DNA from: a virus
Taxonomy: Duplodnaviria; Heunggongvirae; Uroviricota; Caudoviricetes
IMG/VR virus record: IMGVR_UViG_3300045988_154803
Strand: one strand, 5' to 3'
Length of the DNA stretch: 48,828 nucleotides
This document shows, one piece after another, positions 956-19,894 of the stretch. The notes under the pieces were generated by a model. The model ran no database searches and had not been told where the DNA came from. It saw nothing but the letters and a program-made list of their open reading frames with translations. The position numbers were made by a program, and so were the translations under genes. Positions within the stretch are counted from its first letter, which is position 1, and every line of letters begins with the position of its first letter.

Positions 956-1031
956 TGGTGGCCCCTACCGGATTTGAACCGATGACCGTGCGATTATGAG
1001 TCGCCTGCTCTAACCACTGAGCTAAGGGGCC
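956..1031 (-). tRNA. tRNA with CAU anticodon, ileX/ileY-like (probable tRNA-Ile2 reading AUA after lysidine modification; tRNA-Met not excluded)
   Basis: 76-nt cloverleaf read by hand: acceptor GGCCCCU/AGGGGCC, D arm GCUC-AGUGGUU-AGAGC, anticodon loop CUCAUAA, T arm AUCGG-UUCAAAU-CCGGU, 3' CCA; 5' half matches E. coli ileX as recalled. Confidence 0.85.
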
Positions 1032-3193: not shown

Positions 3194-3637
3194 TTATATA
3201 TGTTCACGACTGGACTTCCAGAATATCCACGCCAGATCAACATTCGGGTCCTGGTAATTCATCCCTTCGTTGGCACGAAGCAATAATGTTTCATGGTCTT
3301 TATCACCCGCATGAAACCTGACAAGTGCTTCGAACTTTTCGCGACCATCATCCGGCACTACCGGCTCTGGTTGGATAGTGACGTTGGCAAAGGCAGCACG
3401 CAAACCGGCCTTAATTTCCTCTACTTCATCAGCGCCTAGCGATGAATCTGACAATGCGTGATGGAATGCGTAAGCCATGTCGTCGTTTACTGCAACCGGC
3501 TCGACTTCCAGCGCTGCCAGAGCAATTCGTGCCAGTTCTTCCGCTTCTTCTGCTGGCAGTACAACGTTGCTACTAGGTCCGTATGTTTCGCGCCACTGCT
3601 TGATTGTCAGTAGTCGCTCTTTGGTAATAGTAATCAT
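3194..3637 (-). CDS. Hypothetical acidic protein
   Basis: 147-aa ORF in early operon; no motif recognised. Confidence 0.45.
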   Translation of the reverse strand: MITITKERLLTIKQWRETYGPSSNVVLPAEEAEELARIALAALEVEPVAVNDDMAYAFHHALSDSSLGADEVEEIKAGLRAAFANVTIQPEPVVPDDGREKFEALVRFHAGDKDHETLLLRANEGMNYQDPNVDLAWIFWKSSREHI

Positions 3638-4227
3638 GCCGCGTTTCCTTCTTTCTTATTAACAATTACACCGTCATATATTTCATTAAGGTGCCCTCTC
3701 AACTCCATGCGCCTTAATGCAGATAACATGTAATCGCATTCAACCTGCTTATTTCCAGTAAATGGCTTATCGTCAGGATTACCCCAACAGCAATTTCCCT
3801 TGGGCCACCCATGTACTTTCCGTACTCTTCCGTTAACAACGTGAAGTAATCCCCAGCCGGGAGGTAAATCCTCAACTGAAATAATTCCCGGCTCACTAAT
3901 AAAGAATCGCCAGTCGCCCATGCCAAGTGAGGGATTTTTACGGAAACGCTTTTTGCTATCTGCCAACAAGTCAGCACGAGAACACTTTGCCTCTATCAGG
4001 CATGATGCTGAATTTCTGAATCCCATAGCATCTGGCTGTTCTCCGGTACTGGTTACAGCTATAAAGCGGTCATGAAAGCAAACCTTGAACCCGTTGCGCT
4101 TAAGGAACTTGTACGCAATCTGACAGAGTTCGCGGTGTGTTAACGCCATCTCACTCTCCTTTAGTGCGCAGATAACAGTGGTTTTTCCAGCGGTTTTGCG
4201 CCGCGCTGGGCTTTTTGCAAAAACCAC
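3634..4227 (-). CDS. Hypothetical protein, possible PD-(D/E)XK nuclease-like
   Basis: 197 aa; PDAMGF ... LIEAK arrangement resembles PD-(D/E)xK core; several Cys near C-terminus. Confidence 0.35.
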   Translation of the reverse strand: MVFAKSPARRKTAGKTTVICALKESEMALTHRELCQIAYKFLKRNGFKVCFHDRFIAVTSTGEQPDAMGFRNSASCLIEAKCSRADLLADSKKRFRKNPSLGMGDWRFFISEPGIISVEDLPPGWGLLHVVNGRVRKVHGWPKGNCCWGNPDDKPFTGNKQVECDYMLSALRRMELRGHLNEIYDGVIVNKKEGNAA

Positions 4228-4331
4228 AATCCATCATCCCGTAATGTTTCATTAACCCCATCCGTCGGTTGCTGAGTCTCACCCACTGCCAGACGCCAGG
4301 AGCGTTTCTACGAACTAACAGAATCTTTGCT

Positions 4332-9534: not shown

Positions 9535-9652
9535 ACCACGATATGTGGTATTAAAACCACATATTGTGAGTTTTTCAATGGGCGAAACAAAAAATAACCT
9601 TCTATTTGTGGTCCACCTCTCGTCTTACCATGTGAAAACCACTAAATGTGGT
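9535..9652. promoter_or_regulatory. Immunity operator/promoter region: three ACCAC-N5-GTGGT-type palindromes
   Basis: ACCACGATATGTGGT (9535-9549), ACCACATATTGTGAG (9556-9570), ACCACTAAATGTGGT (9638-9652). Confidence 0.6.
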
Positions 9653-9689: not shown

Positions 9690-10346
9690 ATGAAAAGCAA
9701 CGACGAGAACATCAAGAAAGAAATAGGTCTGCGCATTCAGACTCTACGGAAACAATCCGGCATGACTGCCGGAGATCTCCAGCAAGTCACTGGAATAGGC
9801 TTAAGCACCTTGCAGAACTATGAGGCCGGATTAAGACAACCATCTATACCTGCCATCAAGAAAATCGCGCACGCCCTGAAAGCATCAGCGCCTTATATCG
9901 CGTGCTTAACAGATAACCCGTTCCCACCCCAGAATACTAACGCTCCTGTTATTCCTGGGCTTGTAGCTATAAAAAATGACATAGCATCGCACGCCGGAGA
10001 AAAGCCAGTGCTGGCGATAGAACAGGAGATTCTACGAAGCAAGAACATCAACCCATCGTCTCTGTCAGTTCTCCAGAGCAACGATGAGTTAATGTCACCA
10101 ACAATATCCCCAGGCTCCCAAGTCCTGATTAATACAGACGATACAGAGATTCATGAGGGGATCTATGCCCTTGAAGACAGAAATGGCCCGGTTGTTTTGA
10201 GGCACTGTAGAGTCATACCGGGTGACAATGCTGTTATGCTGTCAACCGAAAGGGATGCTGAAATGAACACTAAGCATCTGAATAACGAGGAATTTAAGCG
10301 TTATAAAGTTCTGGGCCGCGTAGTTAGTGTTGTCAACTGGTTATGA
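9690..10346 (+). CDS. CI-like phage repressor (XRE HTH + S24/LexA-like C-terminal domain)
   Basis: N-terminal IGLRIQTLRKQSGMTAGDLQQVTGIGLSTLQNYEAG; C-terminal domain alignable to S24 fold. Confidence 0.8.
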   Translation: MKSNDENIKKEIGLRIQTLRKQSGMTAGDLQQVTGIGLSTLQNYEAGLRQPSIPAIKKIAHALKASAPYIACLTDNPFPPQNTNAPVIPGLVAIKNDIASHAGEKPVLAIEQEILRSKNINPSSLSVLQSNDELMSPTISPGSQVLINTDDTEIHEGIYALEDRNGPVVLRHCRVIPGDNAVMLSTERDAEMNTKHLNNEEFKRYKVLGRVVSVVNWL

Positions 10347-10438
10347 TACACAGCACGGCGAAAGCCGTGCATTTCTACGCTCAAAAAAACCACGCTTTGT
10401 GGTTTTGACAACATGTGAAAGTATAAAAGAGGCTACGC

Positions 10439-10813
10439 ATGGAATTACATACAGCCAATAAAAACGAAACTCTGATCACTGCTGGAATCGAAATCCAAGC
10501 GTTGAACATAGCGATTGAGTGTATGTTATGCCAAATCATTGATAATGAGAAAGATATCGACTGGATAGAATCTATCCTTCATCTGGCATCAGAACAAAAA
10601 GTCTGCCTCAAAACGGCCTTACAATACGATGTGCCAGCGGTATCGAAGCTGTGCCAGCCATTGATGGCATATAACAGGGCTATTATTTCTGTATGCCTCA
10701 TGATTCTCGATGAAACCCCCCCTCTTAGCGACCGCTCAGAAGCTGCTCTAACCCTCTCACGTAAACAGCGACAGCTAGCAAATCAACTGATATCAACGAT
10801 AGCTGACCTCTGA
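10439..10813 (+). CDS. Hypothetical protein downstream of cI
   Basis: 124-aa ORF; position analogous to exclusion genes in other phages (inference only). Confidence 0.4.
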   Translation: MELHTANKNETLITAGIEIQALNIAIECMLCQIIDNEKDIDWIESILHLASEQKVCLKTALQYDVPAVSKLCQPLMAYNRAIISVCLMILDETPPLSDRSEAALTLSRKQRQLANQLISTIADL

Positions 10814-10948: not shown

Positions 10949-11617
10949 ATGGAGTCTCGACAAATGACTATCTCTGTAGGTATTTTCAACGGAAAAGGCG
11001 GCGTAACCAAATCAACAATTGCCCGTGCTTTAGCAGTTGCTTATGCAAAGGCTGGCTGGAATGTATGCCTGATCGATATGGATGTGCTTAACGGAACGGT
11101 AACGCGTTGGGTACAACGCAGAATGGCCAACAATATCGAACCAGCAATCGCGGCGCAGCCGTGCGGCACACCATCACAAGTCCAGAAAATCATCGAATCA
11201 GAAGTATACGACCTGGTTATCGTTGATGGCGGTGCCTACGCATCTGAATCAGTACCGAAGCTCTCTGAATTTCTGGATATGGTTATTTTGCCAACCAGAT
11301 TCTCTACCGATGACCTGGAAACCACCGTTAACACAGCTCACGGCATCGTTAAAAAGGGTGTACCAATCAAGAAAATTTGCATGGTGTTTTCCGGCGCGGC
11401 TGAAAACGAAGCTGACTATATTGAAGCCCAAGAGTACCTGGCTAATACGCCATACTTTGTTGTCGATAAGTACATTCCCCACAAGCCAGCTCTGAGCAAA
11501 GCTCAGGATAAGGGCTTAAGCCTCATTGAGTGCTCATACGTTGCGCCACGCAAAAAGGCAGACGACGTTATTCAGGGGATTATCAACCAGCTTGAGGCTC
11601 TGACTACTGCCGCGTAA
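10949..11617 (+). CDS. parA: ParA-family partition ATPase (small, type Ib-like); likely start at 10964
   Basis: Deviant Walker A GKGGVTKST; ~217 aa without N-terminal HTH. Confidence 0.85.
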   Translation: MESRQMTISVGIFNGKGGVTKSTIARALAVAYAKAGWNVCLIDMDVLNGTVTRWVQRRMANNIEPAIAAQPCGTPSQVQKIIESEVYDLVIVDGGAYASESVPKLSEFLDMVILPTRFSTDDLETTVNTAHGIVKKGVPIKKICMVFSGAAENEADYIEAQEYLANTPYFVVDKYIPHKPALSKAQDKGLSLIECSYVAPRKKADDVIQGIINQLEALTTAA

Positions 11618-11938: not shown

Positions 11939-12121
11939 TTGGCCGTCGCGACACAACAAGGGGAATTTGTTATGTCCGAGCAACAATATACACGGTTACT
12001 AAAAACTCGTCTAATAGACCTCAAACGGCTGCAAGCTGGCCGCTTATTTGCCCTGCTATCCACCAGGCCAGAATGGGTACGTGAAGCAGTTCTGAAAGGC
12101 TTAATGCGCTCCAGCGTTTAA
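11939..12121 (+). CDS. Small hypothetical protein
   Basis: 60-aa ORF following partition genes. Confidence 0.3.
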   Translation: MAVATQQGEFVMSEQQYTRLLKTRLIDLKRLQAGRLFALLSTRPEWVREAVLKGLMRSSV

Positions 12122-12129
12122 ATTCAACC

Positions 12130-12153
12130 ATAAAAAAGCCCCCGAAGGGGCCT
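12130..12153. terminator. Hairpin terminator (U-run on minus strand, A-run on plus)
   Basis: gcccccgaaggggc stem-loop flanked by A6 on plus strand. Confidence 0.5.
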
Positions 12154-12725
12154 AATCGCTACTTGCTGCTAATGTTTATCGTCACATTCAGAGCGTTATC
12201 AGTAATCTTCCAACCCTCCCCATGTGGCGTAAACAAAGCTCCAGTAACAACGATAAAAATACACATACAGTATTTTTTCATTGTATGGCCCTTACAGGCC
12301 GTTTCACGGCATCCCCACCGACGAAAACAACGCGAGAGCAAGCACGGCTGCTTGTGCTTGCATGTACGGCAACGGAGAATCCTCCCCTAAAGTCGGTGCC
12401 CGGGTGCGAATCGGCGGGAAGGTCCACAGGTATTTTACGATTATTTTAAGATTAGTAATAGGAAAGAAATTAAACGAAAAAACTCGTTTATTTTCACAAA
12501 ATCAGTAACCTACCCACAATCTGTGAGTTTGCAGGCACAACAAGAACCACAATTTTTTGAAGCATAATAGTGGACTATTATTACCTTTTGGGTAAAATTA
12601 ACTTGCTGCTTGTGCTTGCGTGGTTGTTTATACAACAACGTAATGCTGAAAGGACCGCGAATCCGATCAGCACGAAAGAACCGTCCTCAATAGGGCGGTT
12701 TTTTTGTTTCTGCCTACCAATAAAC

Positions 12726-12738
12726 CCACGCTATGTGG
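12726..12738. promoter_or_regulatory. Fourth CCAC-N5-GTGG operator-like palindrome
   Basis: CCACGCTATGTGG abutting candidate -35 TTGTCT. Confidence 0.5.
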
Positions 12739-12773
12739 TTGTCTCTGTTAAAATCCCGCCGTATTGACATGAA

Positions 12774-12873
12774 TGCGCCATTGGTGGACACTTTCCGAGC
12801 CGTAGCAAAATCTACGGCCGGGATTGGAACCCCGATAATCATCATGGCGCATACCGCGTTAGCGGTTTTTTTA
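12774..12873 (+). ncRNA. Candidate small RNA (~100 nt) ending at intrinsic terminator
   Basis: Candidate promoter TTGTCT-N17-TATTGA; internal hairpin ccgtagcaaaatctacgg; terminator ccgc-gtta-gcgg + T7 at 12854-12872. Confidence 0.3.
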
Positions 12874-13037
12874 TGCGTAAAGCACTGCTACACCCAAATT
12901 ATGGTGGGGCGTGCGGGGGAGTCGTAAGACTCGCCGGATTCCATGGTGACCGGTAGTTCCAACCCTGTACGTCTCACCACCCAATGATTGGAACCAGACG
13001 GTGGTGAGTATCCTTAACCTTTAAGGGAACTATCACC

Positions 13038-13229
13038 ATGACAAACTTACCCCATGACTATTACGTCAACCTCGTAAAGATCCTTCTCAAGAAAGCCTCA
13101 TACGCCGATAAACTCCGCCTGGCTGAAATCATCGAGCGCGAAGCTATGCGCATCGCCAGCAACGATAACGCTGTTTCTGACGCAAAAATCTCCCTCGTAA
13201 CCAAAGTAGTTATGGGAGGTACAAAATGA
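13038..13229 (+). CDS. Small protein upstream of antirepressor
   Basis: 63-aa ORF with stop/start overlap (ATGA) to antirepressor. Confidence 0.4.
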   Translation: MTNLPHDYYVNLVKILLKKASYADKLRLAEIIEREAMRIASNDNAVSDAKISLVTKVVMGGTK

Positions 13230-14368
13230 AAACGCTTCCGACCGTTAACACCCTACAGCCTATCCTGCATAACCAGATCCCCGTTATCACTAGTGAACTT
13301 CTGGCGCAGTTATACGGAACAAAAATCAAAAACATTTCTGATAACTTTCTGAACAACACGACGCGATTCATAGCCGGAAAGCATTACTTTAAAATTGAAA
13401 AAAACGAATTACGCGAGTTCAAGAACAGACCTGAAACAATCGGGTTAGTTGGTAAAAATGCCCGCTCCCTAATTCTCTGGACCGAACACGGAGCAGCCCG
13501 TCACGCCAAAATGCTCGAAACCGATCAGGCTTGGGATGTGTTCGAAAAACTGGAAGACTGCTATTTCAACCAGAACGCACAAACGGCCGCGACCGTAACC
13601 GTCTCACCAAACAATGCTCGTGAGGTTGTCGATACGCTCAACGCCAAACCGATGTTTTACATTAAAGTGTGCAACAACGAGCCACTCACAACCTCAGCCG
13701 ATGTTGCCCAGGCATTCAGCACCACAAACAATTCCATCGTTATGGCCATCGATGCGTTACGCATTCCTCGCACAGCTGCGGCGCGTCATTTCTTTAAAGA
13801 GCAACGACCGTTGGAAGGAAGCGACCGCGAAATAACAATCTATCGCATGACAAAAGACGGATTTACCTTGCTCATGGAAAGTATCGACGGTCCAGGCGTG
13901 AAGGATATCAAGCTGGCCTACATTGAAGCCTTTAACGCTATCAGCAGCGTGTTAAAAACACAGTACGAGCGCGATCTGGCTAAACGACTGTACCAGGAAA
14001 AAACGATTATCCGCGCGGCAACAGAGCATAATCGGCTATTAACGGAACCGAACTACAGGAAGGAACTAATCAAGGAGTTTGACAAGGCAACAGGGAAAAC
14101 CAAAGCGGCGCTAAGTCTGCCAGCAATGACTCAGGAAAATGTGATATCAGCCTTACTTCTTGATCTGCTCAGAAACGCCAGAGCACTTATCAGCTTTGAC
14201 GAAAACCTGAATCCTCAGCTCAAGCTACTACCACCGACAGGCAAAGTAGTCGACCAGGCTGATCACAACAGCATACTCAGCGTACTGGATGCAAACCTGC
14301 CAGCCAGGACACTACAGGATCTGATAAAAACATGTGCTGATAAGCTGGCACAGAAAAGCAGACCATAA
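13226..14368 (+). CDS. ant: Antirepressor-like protein (ORF6N/KilA-N-type N-terminal domain + Rha-like domain)
   Basis: N-terminal IPVITSELLAQLYGTKIKNISDNFLNNTTRFIAGKHYF; central PLTTSADVAQAFSTTNNSIVMAIDAL. Confidence 0.7.
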   Translation: MKTLPTVNTLQPILHNQIPVITSELLAQLYGTKIKNISDNFLNNTTRFIAGKHYFKIEKNELREFKNRPETIGLVGKNARSLILWTEHGAARHAKMLETDQAWDVFEKLEDCYFNQNAQTAATVTVSPNNAREVVDTLNAKPMFYIKVCNNEPLTTSADVAQAFSTTNNSIVMAIDALRIPRTAAARHFFKEQRPLEGSDREITIYRMTKDGFTLLMESIDGPGVKDIKLAYIEAFNAISSVLKTQYERDLAKRLYQEKTIIRAATEHNRLLTEPNYRKELIKEFDKATGKTKAALSLPAMTQENVISALLLDLLRNARALISFDENLNPQLKLLPPTGKVVDQADHNSILSVLDANLPARTLQDLIKTCADKLAQKSRP

Positions 14369-16623: not shown

Positions 16624-16923
16624 TCAGATGTTAAACGCTATTCGTTTTCCTGTGGGAAGCTCAACATCCAGGCTTAATTTGCCTCCCATAGCTTCAACGT
16701 AACGCTTTAATGTCGCCAGCTTTAAATCATTTCCGCGCTGCTCCAGCTTTGTTACTGCTGGCTGGCTTATACCCATCGCCTCAGCAACCTGTTTTTGTGA
16801 TAACTGGAGTTCTTCACGCATCATCTGCAAGCCGACCTCAAGAATCATCTCATCTGCCATTTCTTTAATTCGCGCCTGGCTTTCCGGTGAACGGCTGGCA
16901 ATCGCCTCATCTAATGTTCTCAT
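16624..16923 (-). CDS. higA: HigA-like XRE HTH antitoxin
   Basis: QKQVAEAMGISQPAVTKLE HTH; immediately downstream of and overlapping toxin gene. Confidence 0.65.
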   Translation of the reverse strand: MRTLDEAIASRSPESQARIKEMADEMILEVGLQMMREELQLSQKQVAEAMGISQPAVTKLEQRGNDLKLATLKRYVEAMGGKLSLDVELPTGKRIAFNI

Positions 16924-17276
16924 TACTTGCTCTCCAGTGTGTTCAGATGTGCTGCAAACTCATCCTCAGCTATACGCACCAGTTTTTCATAAAACCGCTT
17001 ATCGTTACTTTTGTCTCCTGCACAAAGAACGATGGCCCGGCGAATCGGATCGAACGCATAAAAGGCTCTTATCGGACGGCCAGAAAACTGAACGCGAAGC
17101 TCTTTCATATTTTTGTACCGAGAACCTTTTACGGTATCGGCATATGGCCTGGGTAACTCAGGTCCGTAAACCTGTAGCTTTTTCAAATCAGCCAAAACCT
17201 TTTCCTGAAGAGCGTCTTCTTGCTCATTTAGCCAGTCGTCAAATCGCTGGCTAAAAAGTACCGTCCACATGCTCAA
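16923..17276 (-). CDS. higB: HigB-like RelE/ParE-superfamily toxin (Gp49-like)
   Basis: 117 aa; toxin-first arrangement with HTH antitoxin; sequence pattern recalled from Gp49/HigB family. Confidence 0.65.
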   Translation of the reverse strand: MSMWTVLFSQRFDDWLNEQEDALQEKVLADLKKLQVYGPELPRPYADTVKGSRYKNMKELRVQFSGRPIRAFYAFDPIRRAIVLCAGDKSNDKRFYEKLVRIAEDEFAAHLNTLESK

Positions 17277-19713: not shown

Positions 19714-19894
19714 ATCTGGTCATTTTCCAACCAGACACCCACAATCATAACCACGTTACGTGGTTTTCAGAGAACTCTACCACAACACTTTCGGTCATGC
19801 ACGAAGTCTCTCACTGATCGAACGATAATCCACCAGTAAAAGGATCTAAATTGGATCTCGTTTTGCGAGCATCATACTACTGGCCTAACTCCAG

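Follow-up and report, generated by a model that had tools for sequence, protein, structure and literature searches.

How is the antirepressor gene of a phage-plasmid kept off when the 0.9 kb in front of it has no annotated gene? We addressed this question in the IMG/VR virus record IMGVR_UViG_3300045988_154803 (Caudoviricetes), whose 48,828 nucleotides are referred to here as the window, and in particular in the interval at 12120–13037 between the partition genes and the antirepressor gene ant. The interval is unannotated in every public record examined, and the Prokaryotic Genome Annotation Pipeline (PGAP) calls no gene there. A model's reading of the letters alone (the original prediction) had taken all of it for one structured non-coding region controlling ant, and had proposed a covariance-model search as a check. 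We scanned the whole window against the Rfam covariance models with the gathering scores as thresholds, and three full-length matches, all far above their gathering scores, fell inside the interval: ryfA, isrK and C4. The 0.9 kb very probably comprises two independent, already described RNA-regulated modules lying side by side, a timPR-type toxin–antitoxin (TA) locus (12132–12706) and an IsrK/C4 cassette (12764–13040). A permissive scan returned, beyond a sub-threshold c4-a1b1 match, only noise; weak matches to RNAI, the Phe leader and sR58 were below threshold and were dismissed.

The IsrK/C4 cassette upstream of ant

The isrK family (RF01394) matched over its full length with 72.5 bits against a gathering score of 50, and the C4 family (RF01695) over model positions 1–87 of 87 with 84.3 bits against 45 (coordinates in Table 1). 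The IsrK-type element has two stem-loops, an intrinsic terminator and a conserved promoter of its own, and its predicted fold has a z-score of −2.3. The c4-a1b1 match (RF03163; 12786–12838), which at 39.2 bits is below the gathering score of 46.7, is to the same element, which the isrK model describes better. The promoter aligns with a block, TTGA..N17..TACACT/TATAGT, conserved across the 102 modules described below, including the annotated P1 promoter P1c4 (P51b). After a 24-nt spacer from the IsrK terminator, the C4-family RNA folds with −44.3 kcal/mol (z = −4.6) into the architecture of its family, a long closing stem enclosing two hairpins, of which hairpin 2 (12933–12954) reads GCCGGATTCCATGGTGACCGGT. 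The C4 RNA lies 53 nt upstream of orf63, a small open reading frame (ORF) whose stop codon overlaps the start codon of ant in the sequence ATGA (13226–13229); the antirepressor itself has ORF6N and Rha domains.

Much of what the original prediction had pointed to in this half was present, in part under another identity. RNA-based control of the antirepressor, laid out like P1 c4–icd–ant, is borne out by the full-length C4, the small ORF overlapping ant and the covarying a1/b1 and a2/b2 segments. The predicted ccgc-gtta-gcgg terminator with seven T residues exists (12853–12872), and the transcript placed at 12774–12873 corresponds to a real small RNA (sRNA) element with a terminator, namely IsrK, but it is not the antisense repressor, which is encoded at 12897–12984. 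A hairpin announced just before the first ORF was found at 12973–13008 with 9 bp, its final 'a' being in fact a 't'. The operator-like palindrome, given without coordinates, is most likely C4 hairpin 2; this palindrome and the 5′ arm of the hairpin before the first ORF are parts of the C4 RNA (12897–12984), and a separate palindrome exists at 12725–12739.

Two segments of C4, a′ and b′, have complements on both sides: a1 and b1 in the IsrK element, and a2 and b2 in the leader of orf63. In the minimum free energy fold of the leader, a1/b1 of IsrK are paired with a′/b′ of C4 in cis, and the 3′ arm of the C4 stem is paired with 13000–13008. The complementarity of IsrK and C4 in cis comprises 17-nt arms (12814–12830 and 12956–12972) in addition to b1/b′.

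We consider the support for the C4 contacts to be comparative, not thermodynamic. A gapped pattern for the second C4 hairpin retrieved 120 loci from IMG/VR, comprising 79 unique modules. The loops differ among these modules, yet exact complements of the loops lie at fixed downstream offsets (a2 at about +22, b2 at about +53) and likewise, as a1 and b1, at fixed offsets upstream. For covariation, 102 modules were aligned, P1 and N15 included, and two named structures were counted. Where the C4 helices were taken together with a′–a2 and b′–b2, 92.5% of the cells were paired, compared to 76.5% in shuffles and 33–46% where the partners were slid, and there were 706 double-change cells compared to 199 in shuffles. 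Where the IsrK hairpins were taken together with a1–a′ and b1–b′, 93.1% were paired, compared to 70.5% in shuffles and 35–50% with slid partners. The C4 helices were 92–98% paired with compensatory changes, and all helices covaried. The a′–a2 helix was 96.8% paired, with changes on both sides in five of its seven pairs; a1–a′ (98%) and b1–b′ (91%) also showed compensatory changes, and most pairs of all four contacts, b′–b2 included, had changed on both sides. Relatedness is disregarded in the shuffles but preserved when partners are slid, and both controls lead to the same conclusion. Judged by the covariation against both controls, the cassette of the window truly belongs to a large and coherent family of regulatory cassettes.

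In P1 and most relatives, b2 lies at the Shine–Dalgarno sequence (xxxxxxGGAGG). In the window, the position aligned to the usual b2 (TTTAAGGGAAC) no longer matches b′; the 8-nt complement instead spans the AUG of orf63, 14 nt downstream of that position. Chance does not account for this placement: b′ and b2 change together in sister plasmids, in which a b′ of GTCATTGTG is accompanied by CACAATGAC at this AUG. In a third type, a′, a1 and a2 have changed in concert as well (AGGCTAA / TTAGCCT). When the sister plasmids NZ_AP022814, NZ_CP020518 and CP055628 were compared, at least three C4 specificity types could be told apart (exemplified by the window, NZ_CP020518 and NZ_AP022814), in which two a′ and two b′ sequences are combined, each with matching a1/a2 and b1/b2. 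The combination of two a′ and two b′ into three types suggests that immunity determinants are exchanged as modules among phage-plasmids that are otherwise similar, and at least three immunity specificities are predicted within this phage-plasmid family. The cassette also shows that the b2 contact can shift from the Shine–Dalgarno sequence to the AUG.

Words shared between the cI-like intergenic region and the cassette promoter gave rise to a second motif, ACCAC-N5-GTGGT. The window has four exact and four one-mismatch copies of it, compared to 0.9 expected; those listed are at 9535–9549, 9638–9652, 10389–10403 and 19750–19764, together with the palindrome at 12725–12739. The intergenic region beside the CI-like repressor gene contains two exact copies, and one copy directly adjoins a TTGACA that precedes the ORF at 10439. 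The motif is probably the operator of the primary repressor, and the 12725–12739 palindrome may be a site for this repressor upstream of the cassette. The sequence TGTTAAAAT could be an extended −10 element with the palindrome as its −35 region, an arrangement reminiscent of P1 Op51/P51a. A search of 12100–13100 for LexA boxes found none. We also observed a 9-nt perfect complement, ATGCGCCAT/ATGGCGCAT, between the promoter spacer (12773–12781) and the stretch between b1 and the IsrK terminator (12844–12852); it is not conserved outside this plasmid family and would be relevant only where transcription begins upstream, such as at the putative extended −10.

A timPR-like locus beside parA

The ryfA RNA is the mRNA of a small membrane toxin, TimP, and is repressed by a divergent sRNA, TimR, that pairs with its 5′ untranslated region (5′UTR) (PMC7667032, PMC11228461). 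In the published rule for timPR loci, a sequence complementary to the 5′UTR lies upstream on the opposite strand and is followed by a terminator (PMC7667032). The ryfA match in the window (RF00126) scored 138.5 bits against a gathering score of 80 and extends over model positions 1–296 of 296, with 61% nucleotide identity to K-12 ryfA. The original prediction had seen no convincing ORF in the interval; there is one of 40 codons on the minus strand (12281..12159), which starts at the same offset as the annotated K-12 timP. As in timPR loci, the ORF begins near +145 and encodes a peptide of ~40 aa with a hydrophobic N-terminus, MKKYCMCIFIVVTGALFT...SSK, which can be aligned with K-12 TimP, MKIRCFCIVLIVSGALLT...SSK.

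On the plus strand, a TimR-like RNA has a predicted fold of −42.4 kcal/mol (z = −5.5), and its body can be aligned with K-12 timR. Its first 18 nt pair with the timP 5′UTR through 15 Watson–Crick pairs, one G·U and two more pairs, and the duplex (−35.9 kcal/mol, z = −5.8) was matched by none of 500 shuffles. The position of the site agrees with that in K-12 and with the published rule (PMC7667032). The 15-mer GCTGCTTGTGCTTGC, the longest word common to the two halves, occurs exactly twice (12347–12361 and 12605–12619); by our own arithmetic, a 15-mer match between two stretches of ~300 nt has a chance of about 1e-4. Sister elements provide three compensatory seed/target variants: besides the type of the window, sister plasmids and Yersinia phages bear two other seeds, each matched in its own timP 5′UTR. 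The timP ORF of the sister plasmids is 98–100% identical in nucleotides, while their 5′UTR is ~87% identical.

The hairpin GCAAGCAC-N8-GTGCTTGC of the original prediction is thus exact (12338–12361, 8 bp), and the repeat of its 3′ arm near 12601 is real, as the copy of GCTGCTTGTGCTTGC at 12605. They had been assigned to the control of ant and are instead the target and the seed of the separate timP/TimR locus. Some 60% of the interval thus belongs to a different module, which is not wholly non-coding.

The timP mRNA, read from the minus strand, would encode a membrane-toxin homologue, and the divergent TimR-like sRNA of ~100 nt would block its translation by pairing with +64 to +81 of the 5′UTR. 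The pairing is seen in the window; the translational outcome would be that known for the timPR of Salmonella and Escherichia coli. In a blastn search, 73 of the 74 matching E. coli places were plasmids, and there was no chromosomal match. Given its position beside parA on a plasmid-prophage, and its own seed, this timPR copy would most likely have a stabilizing role through post-segregational killing of plasmid-free cells; a role in defence is a further candidate. In the timPR papers of 2020 and 2026 that were searched for plasmid- or phage-borne copies, none is mentioned. If the locus is a captured chromosomal copy, it would be the first mobile timPR and a natural setting in which to ask whether timPR is capable of post-segregational killing. 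Its location on a mobile replicon next to par genes makes a role in plasmid stabilization directly testable.

Control of ant and competing explanations

C4-family RNAs are excised from their leader by RNase P as stable RNAs of ~77 nt and repress ant in trans. The identities of the three RNAs, their pairing partners, the position of b2 on the AUG and the ATGA overlap can be read from the sequences themselves, whereas C4 processing, the block of orf63 and ant, the competition by IsrK and the loop-set specificity are modelled on P1, N15 and the prophage Gifsy-1. In the model that we favour, a single promoter would drive IsrK, its terminator, C4, orf63 and ant. The majority of transcripts would end at the IsrK terminator, giving a 74-nt RNA that carries a1 and b1. 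Transcripts that read through would contain C4, to be excised, as in the three model systems, as a stable RNA of ~80 nt. Its a′ and b′ would then pair with a2 and b2 of the leader; since b2 is the initiation codon of orf63, this codon would be masked and orf63 not translated, and since ant, overlapping orf63, would depend on orf63 translation, ant would be silent. Rho polarity would probably reinforce the silence, as in P1. Competing pairing with these C4 loops would come from a1 and b1 of IsrK, in cis as part of the leader and in trans as the short RNA; it would titrate C4 or modulate termination. More IsrK relative to C4 would turn Ant on and induce the prophage, as shown for Gifsy-1, and the loop sequences would set the immunity specificity.

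Several points weigh against this model. The cassette promoter has a weak −10 hexamer (GACACT), and b1 pairs with b′ only through a G·U. Single-sequence duplex energies are no better than those of shuffles (z = +0.1 for a′–a2 and, at most weakly significant, −1.6 for b′–b2); single-sequence thermodynamics cannot validate seeds of 7–8 nt, and covariation was used for this reason. The transcript ends, C4 processing, the toxicity of TimP and the effect on Ant are all carried over from homologues. Comparison of orf63 with P1 Icd and N15 gp32, and of Ant with P1 Ant1, revealed no similarity; what is common is therefore the RNA cassette and not the cargo, and polarity and other effects further downstream need not be the same. 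The chief action of C4 may be a translation block, as in P1, or promoted termination, as in P4 and N15.

The latter is an alternative that we consider unlikely, if the most serious of those weighed here. In it, C4 would pair with a1/b1 and a2/b2 on the nascent leader and so act chiefly by making transcription end early, whether at the IsrK terminator or at a Rho site; premature termination is reportedly the mechanism of the P4 CI RNA and the N15 CA RNA. An intrinsic terminator directly after b1 is kept in nearly all 102 modules, among them P1 and N15, the covariation of a1/b1 with the C4 loops is as tight as that of a2/b2, and the Gifsy-1 authors raised this possibility for the RNA STnc1160 (PMC4825925). 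However, b2 falls precisely on the start codon of orf63, where it covaries with b′, and it is on the Shine–Dalgarno sequence in most relatives, both of which argue for a translational block. The two actions are not mutually exclusive. Far less probable is a single 0.9-kb immunity region, as first proposed, in which the 12774–12873 transcript would be a c4- or sar-like antisense repressor of ant and the hairpins at 12338 and 12601 would serve the same control. That transcript does belong to a real sRNA family with its own terminator and precedes a small ORF and ant, but a1/b1 and a2/b2 are of one sense, as is evident from the 10-nt direct repeat GATTGGAACC, so that IsrK is complementary to C4 and not, as had been expected, to the ant leader. 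Moreover, the Gifsy-1 homologue activates rather than represses antirepressor translation, and the 12338/12605 repeats belong to ryfA/timP on the opposite strand and to its TimR. The accompanying parallel with P22 sar–ant found no counterpart: there was no sar family match at the gathering threshold or at E ≤ 1, and the ant leader (12990–13400) has no promoter-like or terminator-like sites on the minus strand.

We give almost no credence to a protein-coding right half, in which the ORF at 12733–12927 (64 aa) would be the N-terminus of a regulator. This was the only ORF among those remaining in the interval with PHROG matches, to 'transcriptional regulator' families down to E = 3e-12; a frame is open through IsrK–C4 into the downstream gene in many lambdoid relatives, and orf45 inside the Gifsy-1 C4 is translated (PMC4825925). 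In the window, however, the ORF starts upstream of the conserved promoter, crosses the intrinsic terminator and stops within C4, the AUG in the 5′ arm of C4 opens only 8 codons (14 in P1), compensatory base-pair changes are an RNA signature, and PGAP calls no gene there. The best explanation of the PHROG matches is that gene calls read through in other phages, where frames are open from the C4 AUG to the gene that follows. This AUG begins, in most lambdoid C4 modules, a frame that continues in phase into the downstream gene (...EAAIMATVP...), and 88 of 101 sequences have one frame without a stop from upstream of IsrK to past C4; the window and P1 lack it. Such frames may reflect shared ancestry together with RNA constraint, or dual coding and RNA use as in Gifsy-1 orf45.

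Returning to the two-module interpretation, a joint reading of both halves is conceivable, and we offer it tentatively. The family may have captured a diverged chromosomal timPR with its own, presumably orthogonal, seed/target code as an addiction or anti-phage module beside the partition genes, together with a C4 switch rewired to mask an initiation codon and possibly tied to the primary repressor through the upstream operator.

The phage-plasmid and known systems

Across bases 12125–12720 (596 in total), identity reaches 99% or more in 31 complete non-mobilizable E. coli plasmids (47–50 kb), and ~30 further plasmids match at lower similarity. Among these plasmids, p48 (strain 1428) bears annotations for repA, parA, a RelE/ParE pair and holins, and for terminase, portal, capsid, sheath, tube, baseplate and tail-fibre genes. 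From these matches and this annotation, we take the window to be a ~48-kb E. coli plasmid-prophage with tail genes of the myovirus type (sheath, tube, baseplate). The nearest isolated phages are the Yersinia phages vB_YpM_39, 41 and 44, for which a literature search found no paper. About 60 sequenced phage-plasmids of E. coli, Klebsiella and Yersinia hold the 0.9 kb, all of them unannotated, and naming its parts would explain how their antirepressor is kept off.

Table 1. Features of the interval and its neighbours (window coordinates)
Feature	Position	Strand	Details
CI-like HTH-S24 repressor	9690–10346		upstream of the interval
ParA	10949–11617		upstream of the interval, as are two small ORFs
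timP mRNA (ryfA, RF00126)	12132..12427	−	covariance match; includes 5′UTR, ORF and intrinsic terminator (stem 12136–12153)
TimP-like toxin ORF, 40 aa, MKKYCMCIFIVVTGALFTPHGEGWKITDNALNVTINISSK	12159..12281	−	ATG at +147 of the ryfA match
TimR binding site in timP 5′UTR (+64..+81)	12347..12364	−	5′ arm and loop of the 12338–12361 hairpin
Putative TimR promoter TGGACT-16-TAAAAT	12571–12598	+	promoter-like site
TimR-like sRNA, ~100 nt	12605..12706	+	seed 12605–12622; terminator stem 12680–12699 and T-run
Operator-like palindrome CCCACGCTATGTGGT	12725..12739	.	one-mismatch ACCAC-N5-GTGGT; 25 nt upstream of the cassette −35
TGTTAAAAT	12746–12754		extended −10-like; after the 12725–12739 palindrome
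Cassette promoter TTGACA-17-GACACT	12764..12792	+	conserved block alignment; inferred start about 12799
IsrK-type element (RF01394)	12799..12872	+	stem-loop (SL) 1 12799–12818; SL2 12819–12834; intrinsic terminator 12853–12872
a1 TTGGAAC	12824–12830	+	loop of IsrK SL2; exact complement of a′
b1 TCATCATGG	12839–12847	+	linker of the IsrK element; 9 bp with b′, one G·U
IsrK terminator ACCGC-GTTA-GCGGT + T7	12853–12872	+
C4-family antisense RNA (RF01695)	12897..12984	+	closing stem 12901–12918/12963–12980; hairpin 1 12919–12932; hairpin 2 12933–12954
b′ CCATGGTGA	12941–12949	+	loop of C4 hairpin 2
a′ GTTCCAA	12956–12962	+	single-stranded in C4
Hairpin CTCACCACC/GGTGGTGAG, 9 bp	12973–12981/13000–13008	+	5′ arm lies in the C4 3′ end
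a2 target TTGGAAC	12988..12994	+	within the 10-nt repeat GATTGGAACC common with a1
b2 target TCACCATG	13033..13040	+	8-nt exact complement of b′; spans the orf63 ATG (13038–13040)
orf63, first ORF of the operon	13038..13229	+	phrog_7886, full length, E = 3e-46
Antirepressor ant, 380 aa, ORF6N + Rha	13226–14368	+	Pfam PF10543, PF09669; PHROG anti-repressor families

Some further observations concern the element as a whole. In Yersinia phages and some E. coli and E. albertii plasmids, an insertion of ~660 bp lies between the TimR terminator and the palindrome (window 12711/12722); it encodes a helix-turn-helix (HTH) protein of 179–190 aa on the minus strand (3607–4287 in Yersinia phage vB_YpM_39). 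At 16624–17276 (minus strand), a RelE/ParE-like toxin ORF (117 aa) overlaps an HTH antitoxin-like ORF (99 aa), annotated likewise in p48; the phage-plasmid therefore has a type II TA pair besides the timPR-like locus. ARAGORN calls the tRNA gene at 956–1031 (minus strand) a tRNA-Met with a CAT anticodon; because its p48 counterpart is annotated tRNA-Ile, the gene may encode a lysidine-type tRNA-Ile2 like that of P1.

Both modules are of known kinds, and the novelty is limited to their membership, the start-codon b2 and the mobile timPR. With chromosomal timPR, the left module shares the Rfam family, the +147 offset of the ORF, a homologous peptide and a divergent sRNA that has a terminator and whose 5′ seed is directed at +64 to +81 of the 5′UTR (PMC7667032, PMC11228461). 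The chromosomal locus is found between sseA and sseB, with an intergenic distance of about 400 nt, whereas the present one is on a phage-plasmid beside parA, with 177 nt; its 61% identity to K-12 ryfA goes with a different, presumably orthogonal seed.

Rfam places C4 in clan CL00128, which links the cassette to P4 immunity. As described by the Gifsy-1 authors, the processed CI RNA of P4 pairs with seqA upstream and seqC downstream (PMC4825925), which resembles the pairing of C4 with a1/b1 and a2/b2. P4, by description, differs in controlling replication genes and in acting by transcription termination.

In Gifsy-1, read-through of IsrK gives an inactive isrK–orf45–anrP mRNA, in which the middle of IsrK is paired with a stretch of ~30 nt in orf45; short IsrK opens this mRNA in trans, and translation of orf45 is coupled to that of the antirepressor (PMC4825925). 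Its authors draw a parallel with seqA/CI of P4 and describe STnc1160, a processed RNA from downstream of IsrK (PMC4825925). Hfq binding is a further trait of IsrK. The window has counterparts of these parts, namely an IsrK with a terminator and a putative read-through leader, C4-like processed RNA and upstream ORF coupled to the antirepressor. The predicted pairing of the IsrK middle with the C4 region in cis corresponds to 'structure A' (PMC4825925), and the a′ sequence GTTCCAA of Gifsy-1-like modules is identical. In contrast to Gifsy-1, the C4 of the window holds no equivalent of orf45, its AUG at 12901 opening 8 codons compared to 46 in Gifsy-1-like loci. The coupled ORF, orf63, which has the operon position of orf45, starts downstream of C4, at b2. 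Gifsy-1 is an integrated lambdoid prophage and the present element a plasmid-prophage. The Rfam scan of the window gave no match to the isrJ family.

The immA locus of N15 (CA RNA) has the identical tandem of isrK and C4 upstream of genes 32–30, an anti-immunity operon, and is likewise that of a plasmid-prophage; N15 is, however, a linear telomere phage, and its cargo genes are unrelated. The unit a1b1–terminator–C4–a2b2 is thus portable, and is again found before unrelated antirepressors.

The layout can also be followed in P1 immI, where the order is likewise promoter, a1, b1, terminator-like hairpin, C4, a2, b2, small ORF and overlapping antirepressor gene; the P1 record is annotated in the order Op51, promoters, a1, b1, c4, a2, b2, icd and overlapping ant. 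Both have an RF01695 RNA, which in P1 stands with a c4-a1b1 element upstream of icd–ant, and the possible repressor operator just upstream of the promoters has the place of P1 Op51. The differences are that b2 is on the Shine–Dalgarno sequence in P1 and on the start codon here, that the upstream element here scores as isrK and not as c4-a1b1, that orf63, in the position of icd, and Ant lack detectable similarity to Icd and Ant1, and that the primary repressor is a CI-like HTH-S24 protein and not C1. The existence of several loop specificity types is the situation that underlies the heteroimmunity of P1 and P7.

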